From Escherichia coli (GTDB taxonomy: Bacteria > Pseudomonadota > Gammaproteobacteria > Enterobacterales > Enterobacteriaceae): a DNA stretch of 64,000 nucleotides. Positions 4,371-44,127 of this stretch are shown piece after piece (positions within the stretch are counted from its first letter, which is position 1; every line of letters begins with the position of its first letter). The translations under genes and the position numbers were made by a program. The notes under the pieces were generated by a model. That model was not told the origin of the DNA, made no database searches, and saw only the letters and a program-made list of their open reading frames with translations. The DNA lies in assembly GCF_002854065.1 (NCBI RefSeq), contig NZ_CP024147.1; one strand, 5' to 3'.

Positions 4371-5500
4371 TATGCGCCCTCCCCAAGACCAGCAGCGATA
4401 GCGTCGCCGATTGCTTTCAGCGCCTGTTCAGCATCTGCACCCTGGGCGGTAAAGCGTAGGCGATGACCTTTCTTAACGCCAAGTGCCACAACTTTCATCA
4501 GACTACGTCCGTTTGCCGGTTTGCCGGTGCCATCAAGGTTTGTCACGGTAATATCACTGTTAAATTGTTTAATGGTGTTGACCAGCATGGTACCTGGACG
4601 AGCATGCAGGCCGTGTTCATTGCGCACCACAAACTCCGCGCTTAACACGTCGTCGGTCGGCGCATCATCGCTGGTCAGCAGCGCCAGCAACGTTGCCGCA
4701 TCCGCTTTCAGCAAGCGGTCAGCTTTATTGTCGAGCAACAAATCAGCGAGACGCTTAAGAACCGCAATGGGCTGATCGTCATTCATCGCCACACTCACCA
4801 GCATGGCTGCCGTTTCGCCGTCCACATCAAAAGCATTTGCCGCACGGCTTACCGCAATCGCGCTACGCAGATTGCCTTCGGCGCTATCGCTCAGCCAGAT
4901 ACCCTGTCCGAGATTCAGCGGTTGTTCATTGATGGCTTTGGTGACGAAAGAGGCGTCAACTGCCCCCGCCTCTTTCAGACGCGCAGCGTTCAGCGCCTGA
5001 AGAGTCAGCAGATCGCTGGCGACGATATCCAGCGTCAGCATTTCGTTGTCGAGCTTCAACTGCTCACTCTGCTTTTCGCCCATCAGCAATGCGCGAAGTT
5101 CTTCTGCTGTTGTTGCTGACTTCAGTTGTTCAGCAACGGAATCATCGCTCAGTACGTGGGTCAGCTGGCGTAGCAGGCCCAGATGCTCATCCGAGCTGGC
5201 AGCAATACCGATCGCTACGTACGCTACCTGACCGTCACCCCAAGTGACGCCTTCCGGGAACTGAAATACCTGAACGCCGGTTTTCAGCACCTGATCGCGG
5301 GTGTCGGTAGTGCCGTGTGGAATAGCAATACCATTGCCGAGGAACGTTGAGGTTTGCTGTTCGCGCGCCAGCATGCCATTGACGTAGCCTTCTGCTACAT
5401 TACCGGCCTGCACCAGCGCCGCAGCGACCTGGCGAATCGCCTCTTCTTTGTCTCCGGCCTTTTCGCCCGGATGGATGTCCTGTACGGATAACTGGAACAT
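4370..5500 (-). CDS. fruB: PTS fructose-specific EIIA / FPr fusion protein
   Basis: 376-aa ORF, first gene of fruBKA; Cra operator motif about 90 bp upstream. Confidence 0.93.
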
Positions 5501-5586
5501 AGTTCTCCTCTCTTGCTGAATTGAAACGATTCAGCTTCTATGAGAAAAAAAGCGCCAACCTGGCTTAGGGTTAAAGACAAGATCGC

Positions 5587-5602
5587 GCTGAAACGTTTCA
5601 AG
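5587..5602 (-). promoter_or_regulatory. Cra (FruR) operator in the fruB promoter
   Basis: Perfect palindrome TGAAACGTTTCA at 5589-5600 (GCTGAAACGTTTCA 5587-5600), matching the Cra consensus core, about 90 bp upstream of fruB ATG; a second half-site-like GCTGAAACAG (reverse complement) at 5617-5626. Confidence 0.7.
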
Positions 5603-5867
5603 AAAGCATAATACTTCTGTTTCAGCACGCAAGGAAAGCCGTAAAGTTATGAGCAAAAGTTTGATGTGCTGCACAATTTTTTGTCATTTTTCCTAATTGC
5701 TGATGGGAAAATCCGTTATCAGCAATTTCATTTCAGCAGCGTCAGCAGCCAATCAGCAACAGTGAAATGGCATTTTGATTATTCGTGGCGCTTTTGATTT
5801 CGCTGTCTGTTTATTTTCTGACAAGCAGCGTAAACTCCGCGTCTTCCTCTTCCAGTGATCGACCAGC

Positions 5868-7049
5868 ATGCATAACTCCCCCGCAGTCTCCAGCGCGAAA
5901 TCGTTTGACCTGACCTCGACGGCGTTTTTAATCGTTGCCTTTCTCACCGGTATTGCGGGCGCTCTGCAAACCCCGACACTCAGTATTTTTCTTACCGATG
6001 AAGTACATGCCCGTCCGGCGATGGTGGGATTCTTCTTTACCGGCAGCGTTGTCATTGGGATTCTGGTGAGTCAGTTTCTCGCCGGGCGCTCTGATAAGCG
6101 CGGCGATCGCAAATCGCTGATTGTCTTTTGCTGCCTGTTAGGCGTGCTGGCCTGCACCCTTTTTGCCTGGAATCGCAACTACTTTGTTTTGCTATTCGTT
6201 GGCGTCTTTCTTAGCAGCTTTGGCTCGACCGCTAACCCGCAAATGTTTGCCCTTGCCCGTGAACATGCCGACAAAACCGGACGTGAGGCGGTGATGTTCA
6301 GCTCTTTTTTACGCGCTCAGGTTTCACTGGCATGGGTCATTGGCCCACCGCTGGCTTATGCCTTAGCGATGGGTTTCAGCTTTACGGTAATGTATCTGAG
6401 CGCAGCGGTAGCGTTTATTGTTTGCGGCGTGATGGTGTGGCTGTTTTTACCGTCGATGCAAAAAGAGCTTCCGCTGGCGACCGGCACGGTTGAAGCGCCG
6501 CGCCGTAACCGTCGCGATACGCTGCTGCTGTTTGTCATTTGTACATTGATGTGGGGCTCGAACAGTCTGTACATCATCAACATGCCGCTATTTATAATCA
6601 ACGAACTGCATCTTCCCGAGAAACTGGCCGGTGTGATGATGGGGACCGCCGCCGGGCTGGAAATCCCGACCATGTTGATTGCCGGATATTTTGCCAAACG
6701 TCTGGGTAAGAGTTTCTTAATGCGCGTTGCTGCCGTGGGTGGCGTCTGTTTTTACGCAGGAATGCTGATGGCGCATTCTCCTGTCATTCTGTTGGGCTTG
6801 CAGCTGCTAAATGCTATTTTTATTGGCATTCTGGGCGGTATCGGGATGCTCTATTTTCAGGATTTGATGCCCGGTCAGGCAGGTTCAGCCACCACGCTCT
6901 ATACCAACACGTCGCGCGTGGGCTGGATCATCGCAGGATCTGTGGCGGGCATCGTCGCCGAGATCTGGAATTATCACGCTGTGTTCTGGTTTGCGATGGT
7001 GATGATTATCGCCACTCTGTTTTGCTTACTGCGGATTAAAGATGTTTAA
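5868..7049 (+). CDS. setB: Sugar efflux transporter B (MFS)
   Basis: 393-aa polytopic membrane ORF divergent from fruB; matches SetB as recalled. Confidence 0.9.
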
Positions 7050-7300
7050 GGCGCGGTCAGCATTTCCAGATCGATAAGCCAGGTCATTGCCTGCTGACGC
7101 GAGTTACCGCACATTTCAGCGCTGGCTTGTAAGCCTGCACAGACTTTCGGCCGCAGTGGCGAGGTGAAAATTTTACAGCGTTGCTGTTCATCAAGCTGAA
7201 TGCAGGGCGTATTGGCGGGCTTGCCATCTGGCATACCGGGAATAGGGCTGGAAATTGAAGGGGCAGTGCAACACGCCCCGCAACCCGGACGGCATTCCAT
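7046..7300 (-). CDS. yeiW: UPF0153 family small Cys-rich protein
   Basis: Internal Met of the 128-aa track ORF gives the 84-aa product [11 protein letters not shown]... as recalled for YeiW; the longer upstream extension is likely not translated. Stop overlaps the setB stop (convergent). Confidence 0.75.
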
Positions 7301-7454
7301 ACGTTGTTCTCTTAAGGTTAACCACCGGATTGATGAGCGCGCACAGTACCACCTTTTTTGCACCAGCAAAAGTGCGAATACCACTTGCCCGAAAGGCCCG
7401 TCGCGAGTACTTTGTCGCGATATTTTTGACATTTTCGACTACAGGAATTTTTCG

Positions 7455-8027
7455 ATGCCAAGAGCGAACGAAATTAAAAAAGGTATGGTACTGAATTACA
7501 ACGGCAAACTGCTGCTGGTTAAGGACATTGATATTCAGTCGCCCACTGCCCGCGGTGCCGCTACGCTGTACAAAATGCGTTTTTCTGATGTCCGTACCGG
7601 GCTGAAAGTAGAAGAGCGTTTCAAAGGTGATGATATCGTTGACACCGTGACGCTGACCCGCCGTTACGTTGACTTCTCCTATGTCGATGGTAACGAATAT
7701 GTCTTTATGGATAAAGAAGACTATACCCCGTATACCTTCACCAAAGATCAGATTGAAGAAGAGTTGCTGTTTATGCCAGAAGGCGGCATGCCGGACATGC
7801 AGGTGCTGACCTGGGACGGTCAACTGCTGGCGCTTGAGCTGCCGCAGACCGTTGATCTGGAAATCGTTGAAACCGCACCAGGCATCAAAGGGGCATCTGC
7901 CAGCGCCCGTAACAAACCGGCGACATTGAGCACTGGTCTGGTGATTCAGGTACCAGAATACTTAAGCCCGGGCGAAAAAATTCGTATCCATATCGAAGAA
8001 CGCCGTTATATGGGGCGTGCTGACTAA
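7455..8027 (+). CDS. yeiP: Elongation factor P-like protein
   Basis: 190-aa product starting [10 protein letters not shown] at ATG 7455; EF-P paralogue; the track ORF extends upstream in the same frame without support. Confidence 0.9.
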
Positions 8028-8047
8028 CTTCAGCCGCAGGCAGAAAA

Positions 8048-8073
8048 GGGATAGCTCAGGCTGTCCCTTTTTT
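8048..8073 (+). terminator. Intrinsic terminator after yeiP
   Basis: Stem gggatagc / gctgtccc (one G-U pair), 4-nt loop, followed by TTTTTT (8068-8073). Confidence 0.55.
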
Positions 8074-8249
8074 AATTTATTATACCAATCTTCTATTTTG
8101 CGCTTCCTGAACACCTTACGCCCGCAATATTCACTCGTTGATTGATCGCCCTCACACTTCATCGCATTAACAATCCAGACCAATTTCAATTGCTGTCATA
8201 TAACTTTACACTGTCGTTGTTAATTAATCGTTACTAAGACGTGACTCCT

Positions 8250-9716
8250 ATGAATACAATTGCCTCCGTTACGCTCCCGCATCATGTACACGCTCCACGC
8301 TACGATCGCCAGCAGTTGCAATCACGTATCGTTCATTTTGGCTTTGGAGCCTTTCACCGCGCTCATCAGGCGTTACTGACCGATCGTGTGCTGAATGCCC
8401 AGGGCGGCGACTGGGGGATCTGTGAAATCAGCTTGTTCAGCGGTGATCAACTGATGAGCCAGCTCCGCGCACAGAACCATTTATATACCGTGCTGGAGAA
8501 AGGGACGGACGGCAATCAGGCGATAATTGTCGGTGCCGTTCACGAATGCCTGAATGCAAAACTGGATTCCTTAGCGGCAATTATTGAGAAGTTTTGCGAG
8601 CCACAGGTGGCAATTGTTTCCCTGACGATTACCGAAAAAGGCTATTGTATTGACCCGGCCACCGGTGCACTCGACACCAGCAATCCGCGGATTATTCACG
8701 ATCTACAAACCCCTGAAGAACCTCACTCCGCACCGGGTATTCTCGTCGAAGCACTGAAACGCCGCCGTGAGCGCGGCCTTACACCGTTTACCGTGCTCTC
8801 CTGTGACAATATTCCCGACAATGGCCATGTGGTGAAAAACGCGGTGCTGGGAATGGCAGAAAAACGTTCGCCAGAACTCGCCGGGTGGATAAAAGAGCAC
8901 GTCAGTTTTCCGGGAACTATGGTCGACCGCATTGTTCCGGCAGCAACCAACGAATCACTGGCGGAAATCAGCCAGCATCTGGGGGTGAATGATCCCTGCG
9001 CGATTAGCTGCGAACCGTTTATCCAGTGGGTGGTGGAAGATAACTTCGTCGCTGGGCGTCCTGCCTGGGAAGTCGCAGGTGTACAAATGGTGAATGATGT
9101 CCTGCCATGGGAAGAGATGAAACTGCGGATGCTTAATGGCAGCCACTCTTTTCTCGCTTATCTGGGTTACCTCTCAGGATTCGCCCATATCAGTGATTGC
9201 ATGCAGGATCGCGCATTTCGCCATGCCGCCAGAACATTAATGCTGGATGAGCAAGCGCCGACACTGCGGATTAAAGATGTCGATTTAACACAATATGCGG
9301 ATAAGTTAATTGCACGTTTTGCTAATCCGGCGCTGAAACATAAGACCTGGCAAATCGCGATGGATGGCAGCCAGAAATTACCGCAACGCATGCTGGCAGG
9401 TATTCGCATACATCTGGGGCGCGAAACGGACTGGTCGTTGCTGGCATTAGGCGTTGCAGGCTGGATGCGTTACGTCAGCGGCGTTGATGATGCCGGAAAT
9501 GCCATTGATGTTCGCGATCCGCTTAGCGATAAAATTCGCGATCTTGTTGCGGGCAGCAGCAGTGAGCAACGCGTCACCGCCCTGCTTTCCCTGCGTGAAG
9601 TTTTCGGTGATGATCTGCCAGATAACCCGCATTTTGTGCAGGCCATCGAACAAGCCTGGCAACAAATCGCACAATTCGGCGCGCATCAGGCGCTATTAAA
9701 CACCCTCAAAATTTAA
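8250..9716 (+). CDS. yeiQ: Putative mannitol/fructuronate dehydrogenase-family oxidoreductase
   Basis: ORF matches YeiQ as recalled; ATG at 8250 gives 488 aa starting MNTIASVT; the track ORF begins at an in-frame GTG at 8241. Confidence 0.88.
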   Translation: MNTIASVTLPHHVHAPRYDRQQLQSRIVHFGFGAFHRAHQALLTDRVLNAQGGDWGICEISLFSGDQLMSQLRAQNHLYTVLEKGTDGNQAIIVGAVHECLNAKLDSLAAIIEKFCEPQVAIVSLTITEKGYCIDPATGALDTSNPRIIHDLQTPEEPHSAPGILVEALKRRRERGLTPFTVLSCDNIPDNGHVVKNAVLGMAEKRSPELAGWIKEHVSFPGTMVDRIVPAATNESLAEISQHLGVNDPCAISCEPFIQWVVEDNFVAGRPAWEVAGVQMVNDVLPWEEMKLRMLNGSHSFLAYLGYLSGFAHISDCMQDRAFRHAARTLMLDEQAPTLRIKDVDLTQYADKLIARFANPALKHKTWQIAMDGSQKLPQRMLAGIRIHLGRETDWSLLALGVAGWMRYVSGVDDAGNAIDVRDPLSDKIRDLVAGSSSEQRVTALLSLREVFGDDLPDNPHFVQAIEQAWQQIAQFGAHQALLNTLKI

Positions 9717-9833
9717 CGATTTCTGCGGTTAAAGCGGATGAAGCTCGCCTTCGTCCGCTCTCCCCTTCTCTTTTCTGCCGTTTTTAGCCAGGATTAACGC
9801 TCAGTTAACTTATCAGAGTATTGCGGAGCCGTT

Positions 9834-10820
9834 GTGACCAGGACCAACCTCATCACCGGTTTTCTCGGCAGCGGGAAAACTACGTCGATTCTTCATCTGT
9901 TAGCCCATAAAGATCCCAACGAAAAATGGGCGGTACTGGTTAATGAATTTGGGGAAGTCGGAATTGATGGTGCTTTGCTCGCCGATAGCGGCGCATTGCT
10001 GAAAGAGATCCCCGGCGGCTGCATGTGCTGCGTTAATGGTTTACCCATGCAGGTAGGGTTGAATACCTTACTGCGTCAGGGAAAACCAGACCGCTTGTTG
10101 ATAGAGCCGACCGGGCTGGGCCATCCGAAACAGATCCTCGATCTGTTAACCGCACCAGTCTATGAACCGTGGATAGATCTGCGCGCCACGTTGTGCATTC
10201 TCGATCCACGCCTGCTGCTGGACGAAAAAAGCGCCAGCAATGAAAACTTCCGTGACCAGCTGGCTGCCGCAGACATCATTGTCGCCAATAAATCCGACCG
10301 TGCGACGCCTGAAAGTGAGCAAGCGCTACAGCGCTGGTGGCAGCAAAATGGTGGCGATCGGCAATTAATTCACAGTGAGCATGGGAAAGTTGACGGTCAT
10401 CTTCTGGATTTGCCGCGTCGCAATTTAGCCGAGTTGCCCGCCAGCGCCGCGCATTCTCATCAGCATGGCGTAAAAAAAGGGTTAGCAGCGTTAAGCCTGC
10501 CAGAGCATCAACGCTGGCGTCGCAGTCTGAACAGCGGACAAGGATATCAGGCCTGCGGCTGGATATTCGACGCTGATACGGTATTCGACACCATTGGCAT
10601 TCTGGAATGGGCGCGACTTGCACCGGTGGAACGCGTCAAAGGCGTGCTGCGTATTCCCGAAGGGCTGGTGCGAATCAACCGTCAGGGCGATGATCTGCAC
10701 ATTGAAACGCAAAACGTTGCGCCACCGGACAGCCGTATTGAGCTGATTTCCAGCAGCGAAGCTGACTGGAATGCCTTGCAGAGCGCGCTGTTGAAGCTTC
10801 GTTTAGCGACTACCGCGTAA
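9834..10820 (+). CDS. yeiR: COG0523-family zinc-associated GTPase (P-loop GxxGxGKT)
   Basis: 328-aa ORF with GFLGSGKTT P-loop and CxCC motif; GTG start at 9834; matches YeiR as recalled. Confidence 0.88.
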   Translation: MTRTNLITGFLGSGKTTSILHLLAHKDPNEKWAVLVNEFGEVGIDGALLADSGALLKEIPGGCMCCVNGLPMQVGLNTLLRQGKPDRLLIEPTGLGHPKQILDLLTAPVYEPWIDLRATLCILDPRLLLDEKSASNENFRDQLAAADIIVANKSDRATPESEQALQRWWQQNGGDRQLIHSEHGKVDGHLLDLPRRNLAELPASAAHSHQHGVKKGLAALSLPEHQRWRRSLNSGQGYQACGWIFDADTVFDTIGILEWARLAPVERVKGVLRIPEGLVRINRQGDDLHIETQNVAPPDSRIELISSSEADWNALQSALLKLRLATTA

Positions 10821-10858
10821 GGTTGCCTGCGTTTTTCAGTAAGATAATTAGAGAAAAT

Positions 10859-11572
10859 ATGATTAAAAATTTGCCGCAAATAGTGTTGTTGAATATTGTC
10901 GGCCTCGCGCTGTTTCTTTCCTGGTATATTCCCGTTAATCATGGATTCTGGTTGCCGATTGATGCGGATATTTTTTATTTCTTTAATCAGAAACTGGTCG
11001 AAAGTAAGGCCTTTTTGTGGCTGGTTGCATTGACCAACAATCGCGCTTTCGACGGTTGTTCACTGCTGGCGATGGGAATGTTGATGCTGAGTTTCTGGCT
11101 GAAAGAAAACGCCCCAGGCAGACGACGTATCGTGATTATTGGTCTGGTCATGCTATTAACTGCAGTGGTATTAAACCAGCTGGGTCAGGCATTAATTCCT
11201 GTAAAACGGGCCAGCCCAACATTGACTTTTACCGATATTAACCGCGTCAGCGAACTGCTCTCTGTTCCCACGAAAGATGCCTCACGAGATAGCTTTCCCG
11301 GCGATCACGGCATGATGCTGCTTATTTTTTCGGCATTCATGTGGCGTTATTTCGGCAAAGTTGCAGGTCTTATCGCCCTTATTATTTTTGTGGTTTTTGC
11401 GTTTCCCAGAGTAATGATTGGCGCACACTGGTTTACTGACATCATTGTCGGTTCGATGACCGTGATATTGATCGGTTTGCCCTGGGTGTTGCTGACGCCA
11501 TTAAGTGATCGATTAATCACCTTTTTTGACAAATCACTACCGGGAAAAAACAAACATTTCCAAAACAAATAA
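10859..11572 (+). CDS. lpxT: Lipid A 1-diphosphate synthase / undecaprenyl-pyrophosphate phosphotransferase (PAP2 family)
   Basis: 237-aa product from ATG 10859 (MIKNLPQIVLL...), polytopic membrane protein; matches LpxT/YeiU as recalled; the track ORF extends upstream from a TTG. Confidence 0.88.
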   Translation: MIKNLPQIVLLNIVGLALFLSWYIPVNHGFWLPIDADIFYFFNQKLVESKAFLWLVALTNNRAFDGCSLLAMGMLMLSFWLKENAPGRRRIVIIGLVMLLTAVVLNQLGQALIPVKRASPTLTFTDINRVSELLSVPTKDASRDSFPGDHGMMLLIFSAFMWRYFGKVAGLIALIIFVVFAFPRVMIGAHWFTDIIVGSMTVILIGLPWVLLTPLSDRLITFFDKSLPGKNKHFQNK

Positions 11573-11983
11573 CTCACAGTAATTAACATCATCAGGTTTA
11601 TTTTTATAGTGAGGATAATCCTGATGATGCGCACCGTGCTTTCATCTATCGAATGCAAAAATCATTCTCTAAGTAAATGAATGGATTGCATGCGTTTCAC
11701 TCAATCGTACTTTAATTGACCAATCCCGCTTATTAACTTTCTGTATCACTTTTTCTTATAAAAAATCATGTAAAACCGCTCGCCAAGACCGCACCAATCG
11801 GGTAATCTCGAACTCGTTTTGCCTCGGCGGTAGATTATCCTCACAGCATATAATTTTGTGCGTTAGTCCACAGATTTGGCCTTAAGGAATTGTTTCAACA
11901 TGCCCAGGTAATTAGTCTCGTGTCGCTTGGCATTTTTTTATAACGATATTTGTCGTTAAGGACTTCAAGGGAAAACAAACAAC

Positions 11984-12550
11984 ATGGTCAAATCTCAACC
12001 GATTTTGAGATATATCTTGCGCGGGATCCCCGCGATTGCAGTAGCGGTTCTGCTTTCTGCATGTAGTGCAAATAACACCGCAAAGAATATGCATCCTGAG
12101 ACACGTGCAGTGGGTAGTGAAACATCATCACTGCAAGCTTCTCAGGATGAATTTGAAAACCTGGTTCGTAATGTCGACGTAAAATCGCGAATTATGGATC
12201 AGTATGCTGACTGGAAAGGCGTACGTTATCGTCTGGGCGGCAGCACTAAAAAAGGTATCGATTGTTCTGGTTTCGTACAGCGTACATTCCGTGAGCAATT
12301 TGGCTTAGAACTTCCGCGTTCGACTTACGAACAGCAGGAAATGGGTAAATCTGTTTCCCGCAGTAATTTGCGTACGGGTGATTTAGTTCTGTTCCGTGCC
12401 GGTTCAACGGGACGCCATGTCGGTATTTATATCGGCAACAATCAGTTTGTCCATGCTTCCACCAGCAGTGGTGTTATTATTTCTAGCATGAATGAACCGT
12501 ACTGGAAGAAGCGTTACAACGAAGCACGCCGGGTTCTCAGCCGCAGCTAA
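11984..12550 (+). CDS. mepS: Peptidoglycan DD-endopeptidase / LD-carboxypeptidase lipoprotein (NlpC/P60)
   Basis: 188-aa ORF with lipobox (LLSAC) and NlpC/P60 catalytic Cys motif (DCSGF); matches MepS/Spr as recalled. Confidence 0.93.
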
Positions 12551-12596
12551 TAAACCGTTTGGATGCAATCCCTTGGCTATCCTGACGAGTTAACTG

Positions 12597-12628
12597 AAAG
12601 CACTGCTTAGGCAGTGCTTTTTTGTTTT
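12597..12628 (+). terminator. Intrinsic terminator after mepS
   Basis: Stem gaaagcactgc / gcagtgctttt with loop ttag, followed by a T-run to 12628. Confidence 0.65.
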
Positions 12629-12730
12629 CATTCATCAGAGAAAATGATGTTTCCGCGTCTTGATCCAGGCTATAGTCCGGTCATTGTTATCTTTTAAATG
12701 TTGTCGTAATTTCAGGAAATTAACGGAATC

Positions 12731-14287
12731 ATGTTCATACGCGCTCCCAATTCTGGACGTAAGCTCCTGCTTACCTGCATTGTTGCAGGCGTAATGATTG
12801 CGATACTGGTGAGTTGCCTTCAGTTTTTAGTGGCCTGGCATAAGCACGAAGTCAAATACGACACACTGATTACCGACGTACAAAAGTATCTCGATACCTA
12901 TTTTGCCGACCTGAAATCCACTACTGACCGGCTCCAGCCGCTGACCTTAGATACCTGCCAGCAGGCTAACCCCGAACTGACCGCCCGCGCGGCGTTTAGC
13001 ATGAATGTCCGTACGTTTGTGCTGGTGAAAGATAAAAAAACATTCTGTTCATCTGCGACCGGTGAGATGGACATTCCACTCAATGAATTGATTCCGGCGC
13101 TCGACATTAATAAAAATGTCGATATGGCGATCTTACCCGGCACGCCGATGGTGCCGAACAAACCCGCAATCGTCATCTGGTATCGCAACCCTTTGCTGAA
13201 AAATAGCGGCGTCTTTGCCGCTCTGAATCTCAACCTGACGCCTTCTCTCTTTTATAGTTCAAGGCAGGAAGATTACGATGGCGTCGCCCTCATTATTGGT
13301 AATACTGCGCTATCTACCTTTTCTTCACGTTTGATGAACGTTAATGAGTTAACCGACATGCCAGTCCGTGAAACTAAAATTGCGGGCATTCCTCTGACCG
13401 TTCGGCTTTATGCAGATGACTGGACATGGAACGATGTGTGGTACGCATTTTTACTGGGCGGCATGAGTGGAACTGTCGTTGGCCTGCTCTGCTATTACCT
13501 GATGAGCGTACGTATGCGCCCCGGCAGAGAAATCATGACCGCCATCAAGCGCGAACAATTTTACGTGGCGTATCAACCGGTGGTGGATACACAAGCTTTG
13601 CGAGTAACGGGCCTGGAAGTACTGCTACGCTGGCGGCATCCTGTCGCGGGAGAAATTCCCCCGGATGCCTTCATTAACTTTGCCGAATCGCAAAAGATGA
13701 TTGTGCCGCTGACTCAGCACCTGTTTGAGTTAATTGCCCGCGATGCCGCAGAATTAGAAAAAGTGCTGCCGGTAGGCGTCAAATTTGGCATTAACATTGC
13801 GCCGGACCATCTGCACAGCGAAAGCTTTAAAGCAGATATCCAGAAACTGCTCACTTCCCTACCCGCACACCATTTCCAGATTGTGCTGGAAATTACCGAG
13901 CGCGATATGCTGAAAGAGCAAGAAGCCACACAACTCTTCGCCTGGCTGCACTCGGTCGGCGTAGAAATTGCTATTGATGACTTCGGCACCGGGCACAGCG
14001 CGCTTATCTATCTTGAGCGTTTTACGCTCGATTATCTGAAAATTGACCGTGGATTTATCAACGCCATCGGTACGGAAACGATCACTTCACCCGTACTTGA
14101 CGCGGTGCTGACGCTGGCGAAACGCCTCAATATGCTGACGGTTGCTGAAGGGGTCGAAACGCCGGAACAGGCGCGATGGCTAAGCGAACGCGGCGTTAAT
14201 TTCATGCAAGGCTATTGGATTAGTCGCCCGTTACCGCTGGACGATTTTGTCCGCTGGCTGAAGAAACCGTATACGCCGCAGTGGTAA
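12731..14287 (+). CDS. pdeN: Membrane-anchored EAL-domain c-di-GMP phosphodiesterase (CSS-motif periplasmic domain)
   Basis: 518-aa ORF with N-terminal TM segment and C-terminal EAL domain (EVLLRW..., EITE, DDFGTG motifs); matches Rtn/PdeN as recalled. Confidence 0.88.
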   Translation: MFIRAPNSGRKLLLTCIVAGVMIAILVSCLQFLVAWHKHEVKYDTLITDVQKYLDTYFADLKSTTDRLQPLTLDTCQQANPELTARAAFSMNVRTFVLVKDKKTFCSSATGEMDIPLNELIPALDINKNVDMAILPGTPMVPNKPAIVIWYRNPLLKNSGVFAALNLNLTPSLFYSSRQEDYDGVALIIGNTALSTFSSRLMNVNELTDMPVRETKIAGIPLTVRLYADDWTWNDVWYAFLLGGMSGTVVGLLCYYLMSVRMRPGREIMTAIKREQFYVAYQPVVDTQALRVTGLEVLLRWRHPVAGEIPPDAFINFAESQKMIVPLTQHLFELIARDAAELEKVLPVGVKFGINIAPDHLHSESFKADIQKLLTSLPAHHFQIVLEITERDMLKEQEATQLFAWLHSVGVEIAIDDFGTGHSALIYLERFTLDYLKIDRGFINAIGTETITSPVLDAVLTLAKRLNMLTVAEGVETPEQARWLSERGVNFMQGYWISRPLPLDDFVRWLKKPYTPQW

Positions 14288-14368
14288 GGTGTGCTTACGT
14301 CCCTTATTATTCATAGTGAAAGCATGCCGGATTACGGCTAATGATGAGTAAAAGGAAATCCGTTGCAG

Positions 14369-16183
14369 ATGATTGTGCGCATACTGCTGCTGTTTATCGC
14401 TCTGTTCACCTTTGGTGCGCAGGCGCAGGCTATCAAGGAAAGCTATGCCTTTGCCGTGCTGGGCGAACCCCGGTACGCGTTTAATTTCAACCATTTTGAT
14501 TATGTGAACCCCGCCGCGCCAAAAGGTGGGCAGATAACGTTGTCAGCCCTCGGCACCTTCGATAATTTCAACCGCTATGCACTGCGCGGCAACCCGGGCG
14601 CACGCACCGAGCAGCTGTACGACACGCTATTTACGACTTCCGATGACGAACCAGGCAGTTATTACCCGCTGATTGCTGAAAGCGCACGCTATGCTGACGA
14701 TTATTCCTGGGTGGAGGTCGCTATTAATCCGCGCGCCCGTTTTCATGATGGTTCGCCCATTACTGCCCGCGATGTAGAGTTTACTTTTCAAAAATTTATG
14801 ACCGAAGGCGTGCCGCAATTTCGTCTGGTCTACAAAGGCACCACCGTCAAAGCCATTGCGCCGTTAACCGTGCGCATTGAGTTAGCTAAACCCGGCAAAG
14901 AAGATATGTTGAGTCTGTTTTCGCTGCCGGTATTTCCAGAAAAGTACTGGAAGGATCACAAACTTAGCGATCCGCTCGCCACGCCTCCGCTTGCCAGTGG
15001 TCCGTACCGAATTACGTCCTGGAAAATGGGGCAAAATATTGTCTATTCCCGCGTGAAAGATTACTGGGCAGCAAACTTACCGGTAAACCGTGGACGCTGG
15101 AATTTCGACACCATTCGCTACGATTATTACCTCGATGATAATGTCGCCTTTGAAGCGTTTAAAGCAGGTGCCTTTGATTTGCGTATGGAAAACGACGCTA
15201 AAAACTGGGCCACGCGTTATACCGGTAAAAATTTCGATAAAAAATACATCATCAAAGATGAGCAAAAGAACGAATCAGCCCAGGATACGCGCTGGCTGGC
15301 GTTTAATATCCAACGTCCGGTATTCAGCGATCGCCGGGTCCGGGAAGCAATCACCCTCGCCTTTGACTTTGAATGGATGAACAAGGCGTTGTTTTACAAT
15401 GCCTGGAGTCGCACGAACAGTTATTTTCAGAATACCGAATACGCGGCCAGAAATTACCCCGACGCCGCGGAGCTGGTGCTTCTGGCACCAATGAAAAAAG
15501 ATCTACCGCCAGAAGTCTTCACACAAATCTACCAGCCGCCGGTATCCAAAGGCGATGGCTACGATCGTGACAACCTGTTAAAAGCCGACAAACTTCTCAA
15601 CGAAGCGGGCTGGGTGCTGAAGGGTCAGCAACGCGTTAATGCCACAACGGGTCAGCCGCTCAGCTTTGAATTATTGCTTCCCGCAAGCAGCAATAGTCAG
15701 TGGGTATTGCCGTTCCAGCACAGCCTGCAACGGCTGGGTATCAACATGGACATTCGCAAGGTGGATAACTCGCAAATCACCAACCGCATGCGCAGTCGCG
15801 ACTATGACATGATGCCGCGCCTATGGCGGGCGATGCCGTGGCCCAGTTCCGATTTACAGATTTCCTGGTCATCGGAATATATCAATTCCACTTATAATGC
15901 CCCCGGCGTGCAAAGCCCGGTTATCGACTCGCTGATCAACCAAATTATTGCCGCGCAGGGAAATAAAGAAAAATTACTGCCGTTGGGGCGAGCACTGGAT
16001 CGCGTATTAACGTGGAATTATTACATGCTGCCAATGTGGTACATGGCGGAAGACCGTCTCGCCTGGTGGGATAAATTCTCCCAACCCGCTGTACGCCCTG
16101 TTTACAGCCTGGGTATCGATACCTGGTGGTATGACGTTAATAAAGCGGCCAAACTGCCGTCAGCCAGACAACAGGGAGAGTAG
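14369..16183 (+). CDS. yejA: ABC transporter periplasmic oligopeptide-binding protein (microcin C / peptide uptake)
   Basis: ATG at 14369 gives 604 aa (track ORF starts 2 codons earlier at TTG); signal peptide then family-5 solute-binding domain; first gene of yejABEF. Confidence 0.9.
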
Positions 16184-17278
16184 ATGGGCGCTTATCTGAT
16201 TCGCCGTCTGTTGCTGGTGATCCCAACGTTATGGGCGATTATCACTATCAACTTTTTCATCGTGCAAATTGCGCCTGGCGGTCCGGTCGACCAGGCCATC
16301 GCCGCCATTGAGTTTGGTAATGCCGGAGTATTACCCGGCGCAGGCGGTGAAGGCGTTCGCGCCAGCCATGCGCAAACGGGCGTCGGTAATATCAGCGACA
16401 GTAATTACCGTGGCGGACGCGGATTAGATCCAGAAGTGATCGCCGAGATCACTCATCGCTACGGTTTCGATAAGCCGATCCACGAACGTTACTTCAAAAT
16501 GCTCTGGGACTACATCCGCTTTGATTTTGGCGATAGCCTGTTTCGCAGCGCCTCGGTGCTGACGCTGATTAAAGACAGTCTGCCGGTTTCCATCACCCTC
16601 GGATTGTGGAGCACGCTGATTATCTATCTGGTGTCGATTCCGTTAGGCATTCGCAAAGCTGTTTATAATGGGAGCCGCTTTGACGTCTGGAGTAGCGCAT
16701 TTATCATCATCGGCTACGCTATTCCGGCCTTTTTGTTTGCCATCCTGCTGATTGTCTTCTTCGCGGGCGGCAGTTATTTCGACCTGTTCCCTCTACGCGG
16801 CCTGGTTTCCGCTAACTTTGATTCGCTGCCGTGGTATCAGAAAATCACCGATTATCTGTGGCATATCACGCTGCCGGTGCTGGCGACAGTGATTGGTGGC
16901 TTTGCGGCGCTGACCATGCTGACCAAAAACTCATTCCTTGATGAAGTGCGCAAGCAATACGTGGTGACCGCGCGTGCGAAAGGGGTAAGTGAAAAAAATA
17001 TTCTCTGGAAACATGTGTTCCGCAACGCCATGCTGCTGGTGATTGCCGGTTTTCCGGCGACGTTTATCAGCATGTTCTTCACCGGCTCGCTGCTGATTGA
17101 AGTGATGTTTTCACTCAATGGCCTTGGCTTACTGGGCTACGAAGCGACCGTCTCGCGCGATTATCCTGTAATGTTTGGTACCTTGTATATTTTCACCCTG
17201 ATTGGCCTGCTGCTGAATATTGTCAGTGATATCAGCTATACGCTGGTCGATCCGCGTATAGATTTTGAGGGACGTTAA
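16184..17278 (+). CDS. yejB: ABC transporter permease
   Basis: 364-aa polytopic ORF; start immediately after the yejA stop. Confidence 0.9.
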
Positions 17279-18303
17279 TGTCGCGACTCAGCCCCGTCAA
17301 TCAGGCCCGTTGGGCGCGTTTTCGCCATAACCGTCGCGGCTACTGGTCGTTATGGATTTTCCTCGTTTTGTTTGGTTTGAGTTTGTGTTCTGAACTTATC
17401 GCCAACGATAAACCGTTGCTGGTGCGTTATGACGGCAGTTGGTATTTCCCGTTGTTGAAAAATTACAGTGAAAGCGATTTTGGCGGCCCTCTGGCAAGTC
17501 AGGCTGATTATCAGGACCCGTGGCTGAAACAACGGCTGGAAAATAACGGCTGGGTACTGTGGGCACCGATTCGCTTTGGTGCTACCAGTATCAACTTTGC
17601 TACCGATAAGCCCTTCCCTTCTCCACCCTCCCGGCAAAACTGGCTGGGAACGGATGCCAACGGCGGCGATGTGCTGGCACGTATTCTCTATGGCACGCGG
17701 ATCTCGGTTCTGTTTGGCCTGATGCTGACTCTCTGTTCCAGCGTGATGGGCGTGCTGGCGGGGGCGCTACAAGGCTATTACGGCGGTAAAGTCGACCTCT
17801 GGGGACAACGCTTTATTGAAGTATGGTCGGGGATGCCGACGCTGTTTTTGATTATTTTACTTTCCAGCGTCGTACAGCCTAACTTCTGGTGGCTGCTGGC
17901 AATTACTGTCTTGTTTGGCTGGATGAGTCTGGTCGGCGTGGTGCGGGCGGAGTTTTTACGTACCCGTAATTTCGACTACATTCGTGCGGCGCAGGCGCTT
18001 GGCGTCAGCGATCGCAGTATCATCCTGCGTCATATGTTGCCTAATGCCATGGTCGCGACCCTCACCTTTTTACCGTTTATTTTATGTAGTTCGATCACCA
18101 CCCTGACCTCACTCGATTTCCTCGGCTTTGGTCTGCCGCTCGGTTCACCGTCACTCGGTGAACTGCTGTTACAAGGGAAAAATAACCTTCAGGCTCCGTG
18201 GCTTGGGATCACCGCCTTCTTGTCGGTGGCGATATTATTGTCTTTGCTGATCTTTATTGGTGAAGCCGTCCGCGACGCATTTGATCCTAATAAGGCGGTG
18301 TAG
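17278..18303 (+). CDS. yejE: ABC transporter permease
   Basis: 341-aa polytopic ORF; start overlaps the yejB stop by 1 nt. Confidence 0.9.
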   Translation: MSRLSPVNQARWARFRHNRRGYWSLWIFLVLFGLSLCSELIANDKPLLVRYDGSWYFPLLKNYSESDFGGPLASQADYQDPWLKQRLENNGWVLWAPIRFGATSINFATDKPFPSPPSRQNWLGTDANGGDVLARILYGTRISVLFGLMLTLCSSVMGVLAGALQGYYGGKVDLWGQRFIEVWSGMPTLFLIILLSSVVQPNFWWLLAITVLFGWMSLVGVVRAEFLRTRNFDYIRAAQALGVSDRSIILRHMLPNAMVATLTFLPFILCSSITTLTSLDFLGFGLPLGSPSLGELLLQGKNNLQAPWLGITAFLSVAILLSLLIFIGEAVRDAFDPNKAV

Positions 18304-18304
18304 C

Positions 18305-19894
18305 ATGACGCAAACTCTGTTAGCGATTGAAGATTTGTCGGTGGGTTTTCGCCATCAGCAAACCGTACGTACAGTAGTCAATGATGTTTCACTACAGATT
18401 GAGGCTGGCGAAACGCTGGCGCTGGTGGGTGAGTCAGGTTCAGGCAAAAGCGTTACCGCGCTGTCAATTTTACGCCTGCTCCCATCCCCGCCGGTTGAAT
18501 ATCTCTCCGGCGATATTCGTTTTCATGGCGAATCGCTGCTTCATGCCAGCGATCAAACGTTGCGCGGTGTACGCGGTAATAAGATCGCCATGATTTTTCA
18601 GGAGCCGATGGTGTCGTTAAATCCATTGCATACCCTGGAAAAACAGCTTTATGAAGTGCTTTCACTCCACCGCGGGATGCGTCGGGAAGCGGCTCGTGGC
18701 GAAATTCTTAACTGCCTTGATCGCGTCGGTATCCGCCAGGCGGCAAAACGGCTGACAGATTATCCGCATCAGCTCTCCGGCGGCGAACGCCAGCGGGTGA
18801 TGATTGCGATGGCACTGTTAACGCGACCGGAATTATTAATTGCCGATGAACCGACCACCGCACTGGACGTCTCTGTCCAGGCGCAGATTTTACAGCTGTT
18901 GCGCGAACTGCAAGGCGAGCTGAATATGAGCATGCTGTTTATTACTCATAACCTCAGCATTGTCAGAAAACTGGCCCACCGCGTGGCGGTAATGCAAAAC
19001 GGTCGCTGTGTCGAGCAAAATAACGCCGCTACGCTATTTGCCTCACCCACTCATCCTTACACACAAAAGCTACTCAACAGTGAACCGTCAGGCGACCCGG
19101 TGCCATTGCCAGAACCTGCCTCAACGTTGCTGGATGTTGAACAGCTTCAGGTTGCCTTCCCCATTCGCAAAGGGATTTTGAAGCGCATTGTGGATCATAA
19201 TGTGGTGGTGAAAAACATCAGTTTTACGCTACGAGCGGGTGAAACACTGGGTTTAGTGGGCGAGTCCGGTTCCGGGAAAAGCACGACGGGACTGGCGCTG
19301 CTGCGACTGATTAATTCTCAGGGCAGCATCATCTTTGACGGTCAGCCACTGCAAAATTTAAATCGCCGCCAGCTGTTACCTATTCGTCATCGCATTCAGG
19401 TGGTATTTCAGGATCCAAACTCCTCGCTCAACCCACGACTCAACGTTTTGCAGATTATTGAGGAAGGCTTACGGGTTCACCAGCCGACGCTTTCTGCCGC
19501 ACAACGCGAACAACAAGTGATAGCCGTGATGCATGAAGTGGGATTAGATCCTGAAACACGCCACCGTTATCCGGCGGAGTTCTCTGGTGGTCAGCGACAA
19601 CGTATTGCGATTGCCAGGGCATTAATTCTTAAGCCCTCGCTGATCATACTTGATGAACCGACATCATCACTCGACAAAACGGTACAGGCGCAAATATTGA
19701 CGCTATTGAAATCATTGCAACAAAAGCATCAACTGGCCTATTTGTTTATCAGCCATGATTTGCACGTTGTCCGCGCGTTATGTCATCAGGTTATCGTACT
19801 GCGACAAGGGGAAGTAGTGGAACAAGGACCGTGCGCGCGCGTGTTTGCCACACCGCAGCAGGAGTATACGCGTCAGCTACTGGCGTTGAGCTGA
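18305..19894 (+). CDS. yejF: ABC transporter ATP-binding protein with duplicated ATPase domains
   Basis: 529-aa product from ATG 18305 ([11 protein letters not shown]...); two Walker A (GESGSGKS) and two signature (LSGG) motifs; track ORF extends upstream in frame. Confidence 0.9.
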
Positions 19895-19897
19895 CAC

Positions 19898-20242
19898 TTA
19901 AAAAGGATTGTAGTTTGAAAAGGGTTCGGCAATTGCCACACCAAAATTTTTCAATCGGCATGTTGCAGCAAACTCGTCCTGGCGATTTACAAACAGGCAC
20001 GGCTCACCTTCACACTCCAGCACCGAACATGGAACTTCGATGTCGCTTAACTCCTGGCTTAGTTTATACATCACCGACCATGCATTATCACCATCCGGGC
20101 TAAGCAATTTAAGCGCCACCAGGCTGTTGTCACCGCACGGTCCATTTTGCGGAATCGGTTCAACCTTCGAACCTGCGAAACCAGCAGACCAGCGATAGTT
20201 CTGCGGCAGTCGATGGACGATTGAGAGTTGTAATGAAGTCAC
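19898..20242 (-). CDS. yejG: Uncharacterised protein YejG
   Basis: 114-aa ORF matching YejG as recalled; convergent with yejF with only 3 nt between stop codons. Confidence 0.85.
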
Positions 20243-20541
20243 TTATTTTCCCCGTAAGCACATTTACTTCACAATTTATTTACATCAATTTTAACATATC
20301 ATCAACAATCCGTCTTTATACAGATCGTAAAGATTGATGCCTCGCCTGCGTGGCCTCTATGGCTCTGATTTAAGTAATATCTGCGGGCGTGGTCACGTTT
20401 GCGGGGCTATATGTACCCGTTTCTGCGATCTAACTCAACCTTTTTAACTACAATGATGTGACTTTTTACATAAATTGATTTTACATAAAATAAACATATA
20501 TCGGGGGAATGATAGATTTGTGGTTGACATGCATCAACAAA

Positions 20542-20560
20542 GGAAGCCTTTTTAGCTTCC
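20542..20560 (-). terminator. Possible terminator hairpin downstream of bcr
   Basis: Stem ggaagc / gcttcc with 7-nt loop, 16 nt past the bcr stop; weak U-tract (CUUUGUUG) on the minus strand. Confidence 0.35.
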
Positions 20561-20575
20561 TCGTTGTGCAATAGA

Positions 20576-21766
20576 TCACCGTTTTTTCGGCCGACTGGCG
20601 TACAGACAGAAGAGAATGGAGCTGGTTGCGCAGAATGCAATTGACCAAATCATCGGCCATGCAGAGTTAAAGGTCGCAAGAGAAAGCAATGCGCCAACAA
20701 TTGCCCCTATGCCAAAACGGAAGGTTCCTGCCAGCGAAGATGCCGTTCCCGCCATATGGGGAAACTCATCAAGAATGACCGCCATCGCATTGGATGACAC
20801 CATCGACACGCAGCCCACAAACGCCGCAACGCCAACCACCAGCGACCAGAATCCCAGCCCCAGTAGCGCACTGATGACCATCCACGCTGCCATAATAAAC
20901 TGTATCCACAACCCCGAGCGGAACATATTTAACGCGCCAATGCGGCGAACGAAGCGGCTGTTAAAGATGGTCATCACGAACAGGAAAACAATGTTTAGTG
21001 CAAAGTAATAACCAAAGTTTTCCGGCGCGACGTGGTTAATTTCAATGTAGACAAACGGTCCGGCGCTTAAGAACGAGAACATCCCGGCAAAGCTGAAACC
21101 ACTGGCCAGCATATAACTCAGGACACGCTTATGACGGAACAGCGCCGCAAAGTTACCAATAGTGGTACGAATGTGAAAAGGCTGGCGACGCTCCGGTGGT
21201 AAGGTTTCTTTGATCAGAAAGAAGATCATTGCCGAAGCCAGAATCGCCGCCACGGCGAGGATCCAGAAGATGTAATGCCAGCTCAGCCACACCAGCACCC
21301 AGCCGCCAACTATCGGTGCCATCAGCGGTGCAATGGTTGTCACCAGCATGACAAACGACATCATCCGCGAGAACTCTTCTTTCGGGTAGATATCACGCAT
21401 CAAAGCGTTGATAACCACGCTGGCCGCAGCCGCCGCCAGCCCGTGGAAGAAACGCATCACAATCAGCTGATCGATGGTTTGTGCCAACGCACACGCCACC
21501 GCGGCGGCGGCAAACACCAGCGTACCGCCAAGAACCACCGGCTTACGCCCGAAGCTGTCTGCCATCGGCCCGTAGATTAACTGCCCCAACGCAAAGCCCA
21601 GAATATAAGTACTGAGGGTCATCTGCGTACTGCCCGCCGGTACGCCAAACTGCGCTGAAATTACCGGTAGCGCGGGCAGATACATATCAATCGACAGCGG
21701 CATCAACATGGCCAGCAGGCCAAGGATAAAAACAATAGCAAACGACGAATGCTGTCGGGTGGTCAC
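20576..21766 (-). CDS. bcr: Bicyclomycin/multidrug efflux MFS transporter
   Basis: 396-aa 12-TM MFS ORF; matches Bcr as recalled. Confidence 0.92.
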
Positions 21767-43643: not shown

Positions 43644-44127
43644 GGAGATACTCCGCAGTTATGGCTGATACCGGACAGCTGGCTGCACATGCTCCACATC
43701 CGTTGCAAAGTTGGCTATTAAGTTGCGGCTGGTAGATCCCGGAGAGCGTCGGGCGAAAGATAATTGCCATTGGCTCACAGCTATCCTGACAGCGGCGGCA
43801 TTCAACTGACTGATACGCCAGGCACGCGTCCCCAATGGTGAACTGCAAATCCCAGGCCCTGGTGTGGCGCGGAGAAAATAGCGATTCGGGGCAAGCCTGC
43901 GCGCAGGCGTAACAGAAGCTGCACTCGTTATTTTTGAAATTAACGCTCGGATAGCCGCCCGCGCCGCGTTGCAGGATGTTGTTTTCACAAGCATTAATAC
44001 AGGCGTCGCAGCGGGTGCAATGGGTCAGAAAATGAGATTCATCACCGGACCAGGGCGGACGGATACCGTTACTGGCTTTGCGCCAGCGACCAGTGAGTAT
44101 GCCCCGACGGGATGCATCAATCTTCAC
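43633..44127 (-). CDS. napF: Ferredoxin-type protein NapF
   Basis: 164-aa ORF with multiple CxxCxxCxxxCP motifs; first gene of the nap-ccm cluster. Confidence 0.92.
   Translation of the reverse strand: MKIDASRRGILTGRWRKASNGIRPPWSGDESHFLTHCTRCDACINACENNILQRGAGGYPSVNFKNNECSFCYACAQACPESLFSPRHTRAWDLQFTIGDACLAYQSVECRRCQDSCEPMAIIFRPTLSGIYQPQLNSQLCNGCGACAASCPVSAITAEYLHAH

Follow-up and report, generated by a model that had tools for sequence, protein, structure and literature searches.

Two pairs of convergent genes, yejF/yejG and setB/yeiW, lie in a 64,000-nt stretch of Escherichia coli DNA (hereafter the window), with stop codons that nearly touch in the first pair and overlap in the second. We consider it probable that both are ordinary, ancient tail-to-tail junctions with a 3' overlap of transcripts bounded by Rho, and that a stem at the yejF/yejG junction acts as a shared 3' structure. 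The sole new detail is this small conserved RNA hairpin spanning the yejF/yejG junction; the remainder is a known layout.

All four partners are real protein-coding genes, paired on opposite strands in the RefSeq annotation. The yejF gene (18305-19894, + strand) encodes an ATPase and closes the yejABEF series of genes for a peptide/microcin C importer. Its TGA stop (19892-19894) is separated by a 3-nt spacer, CAC (19895-19897), from yejG (19898-20242, - strand; 114 aa, YejG family), whose stop, TAA, is read from the complementary strand at 19898-19900. At the second junction, setB (5868-7049, + strand), coding for an MFS sugar efflux transporter and ending with TAA at 7047-7049, faces yeiW (7046-7300, - strand), coding for an 84-aa YkgJ-family cysteine-cluster protein with a TAA stop that is the reverse complement of 7046-7048. 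The two coding regions share the 4 nt TTAA, generally YTAA, at 7046-7049. The original prediction had placed the yejF and yejG stops 3 nt apart (19894 and 19898) and the setB/yeiW overlap at exactly these four positions; both statements agree to the nucleotide with the sequence, the list of open reading frames and the RefSeq annotation, and it was equally right that a 4-nt overlap and a 3-nt gap leave no room for a terminator between the genes of either pair.

The RefSeq annotation of a 99.8%-identical strain has identical coordinates (offset window+601), and that of MG1655 agrees as well (offset window+2257995, verified on both strands), with setB at 2263863-2265044, yeiW at 2265041-2265295, yejF at 2276300-2277889 and yejG at 2277893-2278237. 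The window is natural E. coli chromosome of a non-K-12 kind: its sequence divergence from MG1655 is about 1.2% over 16.5 kb, and the identity to strain CUWW06 is 99.8% over 1 kb. The two small genes are well founded: both a promoter and a 3' end have been mapped for yejG, and YeiW has 3399 homologues with the CxxCxxCC domain, among them 84-aa homologues throughout the Enterobacterales.

Such junctions are common in E. coli. About 704 convergent gene pairs have been counted (2026 preprint), and Huvet & Stumpf give the number of convergent overlapping pairs as 75. When we sampled 150 kb of the MG1655 annotation elsewhere, 6 of 24 convergent CDS pairs had gaps of at most 5 nt: cueR/ybbJ (gap 0), emtA/ycgR (gap 1), yqfG/yqfH (overlap of 4 nt) and three pairs with longer overlaps. 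With about 10 convergent pairs expected per 64 kb, this rate predicts one to two tight junctions per window. Two of them in one window are thus at chance level, an ordinary and already annotated layout. Like other tail-to-tail overlapping or abutting pairs, setB/yeiW and yejF/yejG are conserved opposite-strand genes whose stop codons overlap (YTAA, 4 nt) or almost touch. Nothing essential distinguishes them, and they are two more annotated cases, except that their exact spacing is unusually stable across the bacterial family.

This stability is best seen for yejF/yejG. Relatives of yejG were found in 80 species genomes (one genome per species), and yejF converges on yejG in 79 of these. In 68 of the 79 species, including members of Escherichia, Salmonella, Citrobacter, Klebsiella, Kluyvera, Kosakonia, Enterobacter and Leclercia, the two genes are separated by exactly 3 nt; in the others the gap ranges from -21 to +23 nt. 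It stays constant at 3 nt although the stop codons and the spacer bases vary. The 4-nt overlap of setB and yeiW is identical in all six other genera found to carry setB, namely Klebsiella (K. aerogenes), Citrobacter (C. farmeri), Leclercia, Cronobacter, Kosakonia and Cedecea; setB is absent from Pantoea alhagi. Here the third base of the last Pro codon of yeiW is the complement of the final base of the setB stop, so that CCT TAA pairs with a TAA stop of setB and CCC TAA with a TAG stop. By these comparisons, both junctions are old.

An 80-species codon alignment revealed that synonymous diversity is lowered to 0.53 in the last seven codons of yejF, and a search in this region uncovered a 9-bp stem-loop (19870-19897) that, according to folding and comparative alignment, can form on both transcripts. 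Its 5' arm, GCGTCAGCT (19870-19878), comprises the third base of a Thr codon, an Arg and a Gln codon and the first two positions of a Leu codon. A loop of 10 nt (19879-19888) leads over to the 3' arm, AGCTGACAC / AGCTGACNC (19889-19897), in which the Ser codon and the TGA stop are followed by the 3-nt spacer. The spacer (19895-19897) forms the base of the stem, and the yejG stop directly adjoins it.

Among 54 distinct sequences, 83% of the cells of the stem are paired, compared with 18-36% when the partners are slid against each other, and the covariation is higher than in all 500 shuffles, with controls that leave some shared ancestry in place. The third base of the spacer covaries with the wobble base of the Thr codon (pair 6-33: GC 26, AU 6, CG 6, GU/UG 4), and the third positions of the Arg codon and the stop codon covary as well, Arg-CGC occurring together with a TAG stop six times. 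Ser is encoded by AGC in 43 of the 54 sequences, though six codons are available; the yejF stop is TGA in 46 and the spacer CGN in 44. For a null model, synonymous codons were resampled from each species' own yejF usage, and stops and spacer were randomised. The observed pairing was 0.91 on the + strand and 0.93 on the - strand, against expectations of 48% and 56%, respectively, and maxima of 0.56 and 0.64 over 2000 sets. A perfect stem is found more often on yejG-sense RNA (30/54) than on yejF-sense RNA (20/54). The comparative data thus indicate that the base pairs are kept by compensatory change beyond coding constraint, with shared ancestry partly controlled.

One could object that the spacing is a frozen accident, in which constrained C-termini and a 3-nt spacer offer only a tiny mutational target, and the stem is a by-product of amino acid sequence and codon bias. 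The C-terminal residues are indeed conserved in both YejF and YejG, the gaps do drift (-21 to +23) in some lineages, and the stem is without a dominant 3' end in K-12. In addition, the probability of a 9/9 stem arising by chance in a single sequence is 0.004, which is not negligible across some 100 tight junctions. This explanation nevertheless seems very doubtful to us, as the non-coding spacer shows stronger conservation than synonymous sites, which in the rest of yejF have diverged considerably, three Watson-Crick types occur where the third base of the spacer covaries with the third base of the Thr codon, and none of the 2000 codon-resampled sets reaches the paired fraction of 0.91-0.93.

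The window itself carries a variant of the stem. In MG1655 and CUWW06 the spacer is CGC and the stem is perfect; the window has CAC instead, with an A at 19896, so that a G.U pair is kept on yejG-sense RNA only. No exact match to the 70-mer of the window was found among 5,424 complete E. coli genomes. Folding of three other abutting MG1655 junctions gave a small stem around the stops in emtA/ycgR only, and no general rule can be claimed on this basis. A small stem centred on TTAAA/TTTAA is also present at the setB/yeiW junction of E. coli; it is inconsistent across the six other genera, the seven sequences being too few to judge.

As to the role of the yejF/yejG stem, we considered a bidirectional intrinsic terminator and rejected it. 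Downstream of the hairpin the sequence reads UUAAAAAGG on the + strand and GUAUACUCC on the - strand, i.e. an A-rich run comes after it on the + strand, and the U run on the - strand precedes it. Scans for intrinsic terminators gave no match at either junction, and an Rfam scan of positions 5000-21000 (E<=1) gave no match. In our view the stem is most likely a shared 3' protective or pause structure, as its conservation pattern suggests. MG1655, which has the perfect stem, shows no dominant Term-seq 3' end at it on either strand under three conditions, so the proposed stabilising role is not seen in K-12 under these conditions. A parallel is offered by the REP elements, present in about 30% of the convergent pairs of E. 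coli (2026 preprint): they too are palindromes common to two converging 3' ends and have been proposed as dual 3' UTR elements. The junction stem differs from them in being a unique sequence rather than a member of a repeat family, and in lying within coding sequence.

For yejG, both ends of the transcript can be placed. Our promoter scan identified a sigma-70 promoter, TTGATG-17-TATCAT (20509-20537, - strand), and the same hexamers appear for yejG in a list of constitutive RpoD promoters (Shimada 2014). Acid-specific induction of the gene has been reported, too. Adams et al. 2021 (eLife, PMC7815308) mapped a strong Term-seq 3' end at 2277685(-), labelled 'antisense yejF', which corresponds to position 19690 of the window; two entries have scores of 212916 and 168450. 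Supplementary file 1 of that study, with one tab per condition, contains 'yejF' three times, and at least two of these occurrences are the end at 2277685(-). The yejG mRNA accordingly has a 3' UTR of 208 nt (19690-19897, - strand) that runs antisense to the final 205 nt of yejF. Further downstream, a bicyclomycin-sensitive peak at 2277275(-), with a Rho score of 3.76 and p = 2e-10 (Supplementary file 2, PMC7815308), marks a Rho-dependent region antisense to yejF. The peak, at 19280 on the - strand, is situated about 618 nt beyond the yejG stop and about 410 nt downstream of the 3' end at 19690. The antisense overlap of yejG into yejF therefore appears to be limited by Rho. Stretches with more C than G follow both stop codons, with C/G ratios of 1.3-1.45 in the first 150 nt past yejG and up to 2.1 past the yejF stop.

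Directly 5' of the yejG 3' end, a stem-loop can be folded (19691-19744, - strand; core stem 19733-19696, -12.2 kcal/mol), which is followed by GCCUGUACCG and is without a U tract. The yejG end fits a class described by Dar & Sorek 2018, in which diffuse Rho termination is followed by trimming to a protective stem-loop; trimming by exonucleases would then apply to yejG as well. The resemblance to the cases of Dar & Sorek 2018 and Peters et al. 2012 lies in an end just past a stem-loop lacking a U tract, with the Rho region some 410 nt further on. A difference from the Dar & Sorek class is that the 3' UTR and the Rho region of yejG are wholly within the CDS of the facing gene. In the 80-species comparison, the stem-loop at 19691-19744 was kept within Escherichia only; RNAalifold found no consensus across the 80 species, and the orthologues fold no better than shuffled sequences. 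The 80-species codon alignment also gave no sign of extra synonymous constraint under the yejG 3' UTR (0.63-0.81, compared with 0.66-0.84 in upstream yejF). The yejG 3' overlap itself is mostly not under selection.

Much less is recorded for the opposite direction. The Term-seq tables of Adams 2021 (K-12, three conditions) list no 3' end for yejF itself or for setB, and contain neither a 'yejG' entry nor a 'primary' yejG end; the SMRT-Cappable-seq and TERMITe supplements have no 3' end entries for these genes. As there is no mapped 3' end for yejF or setB, half of the overall picture has to be inferred. Beyond yejG, the bcr gene has a terminator hairpin, GGAAGC..GCTTCC (20542-20560), and a weak Term-seq 3' end at 2278567(+), about position 20573 of the window, was mapped at this hairpin (Adams 2021, PMC7815308). 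This end may derive from yejABEF transcripts reading through the entire yejG gene; promoter-like sites at 20221-20297 could be an alternative source of + strand RNA ending near 20573. The + strand signal around yejF is weak.

These data also bear on the idea that the junction stem works as a pause element at which converging polymerases release each other without Rho, resulting in bidirectional termination driven by collision. A conserved hairpin formable on both strands sits exactly at the yejF/yejG junction, and the published model calls for a hairpin other than an intrinsic terminator, as is the case here. Overlapping bidirectional terminators of this kind (Ju et al. 2019; Wang et al. preprint, e.g. 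ynaJ-uspE) likewise involve a convergent pair and one non-canonical shared hairpin. At yejF/yejG, by contrast, the hairpin consists of coding sequence plus the 3-nt spacer, and the dominant yejG 3' end is found 180 nt further on, with bicyclomycin-sensitive read-through. No 3' end is listed at the junction hairpin in MG1655, and the + strand signal of yejABEF is so weak that polymerase collisions should be rare. Altogether, we regard termination by collision as quite improbable. Nor does the junction agree with a terminator of the Ju et al. 2019 type on the yejG side, where the paired Rho-independent ends that define this type were not found.

The setB/yeiW pair presents a different picture, as yeiW contains a terminator-like hairpin within its own reading frame. 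The terminator scan detected it at 7256-7279 on the - strand, with GGGGCGTGTTGCACTGCCCC at 7279-7260 followed by UUCAAUUU. The dominant Term-seq 3' end of yeiW, 2265251(-) or position 7256 of the window, maps there, 44 nt into the ORF, with a Rho score of 1.36 ('No') and an intrinsic-terminator score of 6.97 (Adams 2021, PMC7815308). Comparison with other genera indicates that this internal terminator is specific to E. coli. With the dominant end so early in the gene, much of yeiW transcription may never reach setB, and the terminator-like site may in this way limit the number of polymerases that do. The original prediction had expected transcripts to overlap at their 3' ends, and had named transcript ends upstream of the stop codons as an observation against it: for yejG the overlap is borne out by the Term-seq end 208 nt on, for the other three transcripts it is not shown, and the dominant yeiW end does lie upstream of its stop.

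Excludons, in which long UTRs mediate cis-antisense regulation, were described in Listeria. The yejG mRNA resembles them in that its long UTR covers 205 nt of the oppositely oriented yejF; for yejF/yejG, inverse expression, a functional link and RNase III dependence are hypothetical. A switch of this type would imply that transcription of yejG into yejF lowers YejABEF expression, via head-on polymerase collisions and/or cleavage of the RNA duplex by RNase III, with the reverse direction being conceivable as well and setB/yeiW behaving likewise. The 205-nt overlap, the read-through of at least 618 nt, the pH-specific induction of yejG on top of a constitutive promoter, and the conservation of the yejF/yejG arrangement across the family would all suit such a switch. 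Moreover, an RNase III duplex captured by p19 is present inside yejF (19146-19167; Huang 2020, supplementary file 7), about 730 nt beyond the yejG stop, demonstrating the joint presence of sense and antisense RNA at this site.

This duplex has a low count, however, and Huang 2020 reported that most E. coli genes give rise to duplexes of this kind, with few convergent 3' overlaps in the top clusters. Among the entries listed in that p19/RNase III study there is neither yejG nor a duplex from the yejF/yejG junction. Further points against an excludon-like switch are that synonymous constraint is not raised under the yejG 3' UTR, that the stem-loop at the yejG 3' end is specific to Escherichia, that Rho curtails the yejG antisense RNA, and that most yeiW transcripts get no further than 44 nt into the gene. 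We therefore hold such a switch to be unlikely. Mutual antisense interference, which had been expected from the missing terminators, found no support at either junction in the published data that we searched, and we found no evidence for regulation of either gene by the 3' overlap.

A more elaborate version would combine the junction stem and an obligatory 3' overlap into an acid-responsive switch, with induction of yejG at low pH sending polymerases and antisense RNA into yejF. If this were true, the YejABEF peptide/microcin C importer would be shut down in acid, and the stem would be a programmed site of collision or processing; among the possibilities discussed here, we consider this one the least probable.

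Returning to ordinary junctions with a Rho-bounded overlap, the preferred reading, the starting point is that no terminator fits between the stop codons, which obliges each transcript to run into the partner gene and to end within or past it. Transcription of yejG would start at its own sigma-70 promoter, pass the yejG stop and cross the 9-bp junction stem-loop, formed by the spacer together with the stop of yejF and its codons for Ser, Leu, Gln and Arg. It would then continue antisense into yejF, where, as the published bicyclomycin data show, Rho halts it within a few hundred nucleotides. Exonucleases would trim the RNA back to the stem-loop at 19691-19744, consistent with the steady-state 3' end that published Term-seq places just past this stem-loop, 208 nt inside yejF. 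Coming from the Rho site, these exonucleases would meet the Escherichia-specific stem first, and the junction stem, kept across the family, would be the next barrier. Transcripts of yejABEF most likely end in a Rho-dependent manner in antisense yejG, or else at the bcr hairpin. On both mRNAs the junction stem would preserve a complete ORF including its stop codon, a role suggested by the comparative data. At the other junction, transcription of yeiW would largely be cut at the terminator-like site within its ORF, limiting the conflict with setB.

What these junctions illustrate, then, is that a terminator 'missing' between two facing genes is normal in E. coli, where Rho and structures inside coding sequences cope with the converging transcripts. 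The yejF/yejG junction adds that selection can act on a 3-nt 'gap' as a component of an RNA stem, other bases of which serve at the same time as Ser and stop codons, a compact case of coding sequence that appears to bear a shared 3'-end structure. Should this stem turn out to determine, for both genes, how stable the mRNA is or where polymerase pauses, it would provide a tidy model for how the 3' ends of tightly packed convergent genes are formed.

Within the conserved 9-bp stem-loop that spans the yejF (+) and yejG (-) stop codons (19870-19897), window position 19896 is an A, which is replaced by G in MG1655 and in CUWW06, a strain 99.8% identical to the window over 1 kb. On the yejF RNA the A turns a G-C pair of this stem into C.A, and on the yejG RNA into G.U. 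Among 5,424 complete E. coli genomes, none contains the exact 70-mer of the window around this position; the A is either a private change or a sequencing error.

The sequence of the yejF/yejG junction is typical in Citrobacter koseri NCTC10786, where the YejG match (comparison locus L081, 2501-2848) is merely 52% identical, next to 92% for the neighbouring YejF. A frameshift, decay into a pseudogene or a misassembly may account for this low identity. Gene content around the convergent pairs also varies by lineage: in Intestinirhabdus alba (L031) yejG is found without an adjoining yejF, and in Pantoea alhagi (L085) setB is missing, with fruB directly following yeiW.

On the promoter side of yejG (20532-20573), roughly 4 nt separate the -35 hexamer of the yejG promoter from the bcr terminator hairpin (20542-20560), whose loop contains one T more in the window than in MG1655. 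Just beyond this hairpin there is a weak + strand 3' end, and the RNA ending there could originate from promoter-like + strand sites at 20221-20297. Inside yeiW, 44 nt into the ORF, a hairpin resembling an intrinsic terminator coincides with a dominant - strand 3' end (7256-7279). This site falls within the Cys-cluster codons, and the hairpin is specific to E. coli, being missing in seven other genera. A very strong Term-seq 3' end, classified as "orphan" (MG1655 2263539, window 5544, - strand; Adams 2021, PMC7815308), maps to the fruB leader, 44 nt ahead of the ATG of fruB at 5500. It is immediately preceded by a hairpin with a U7 tract (GCCAGGTTGGCGCTTTTTTT) and looks like a terminator or attenuator of the fruBKA leader.

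At another abutting convergent pair, emtA/ycgR of MG1655 (1-nt gap; 43770-43815 in the MG1655 segment L091), a 6-bp stem encloses both stop codons in its loop, a hint that other tightly spaced junctions, too, may be straddled by such stems.
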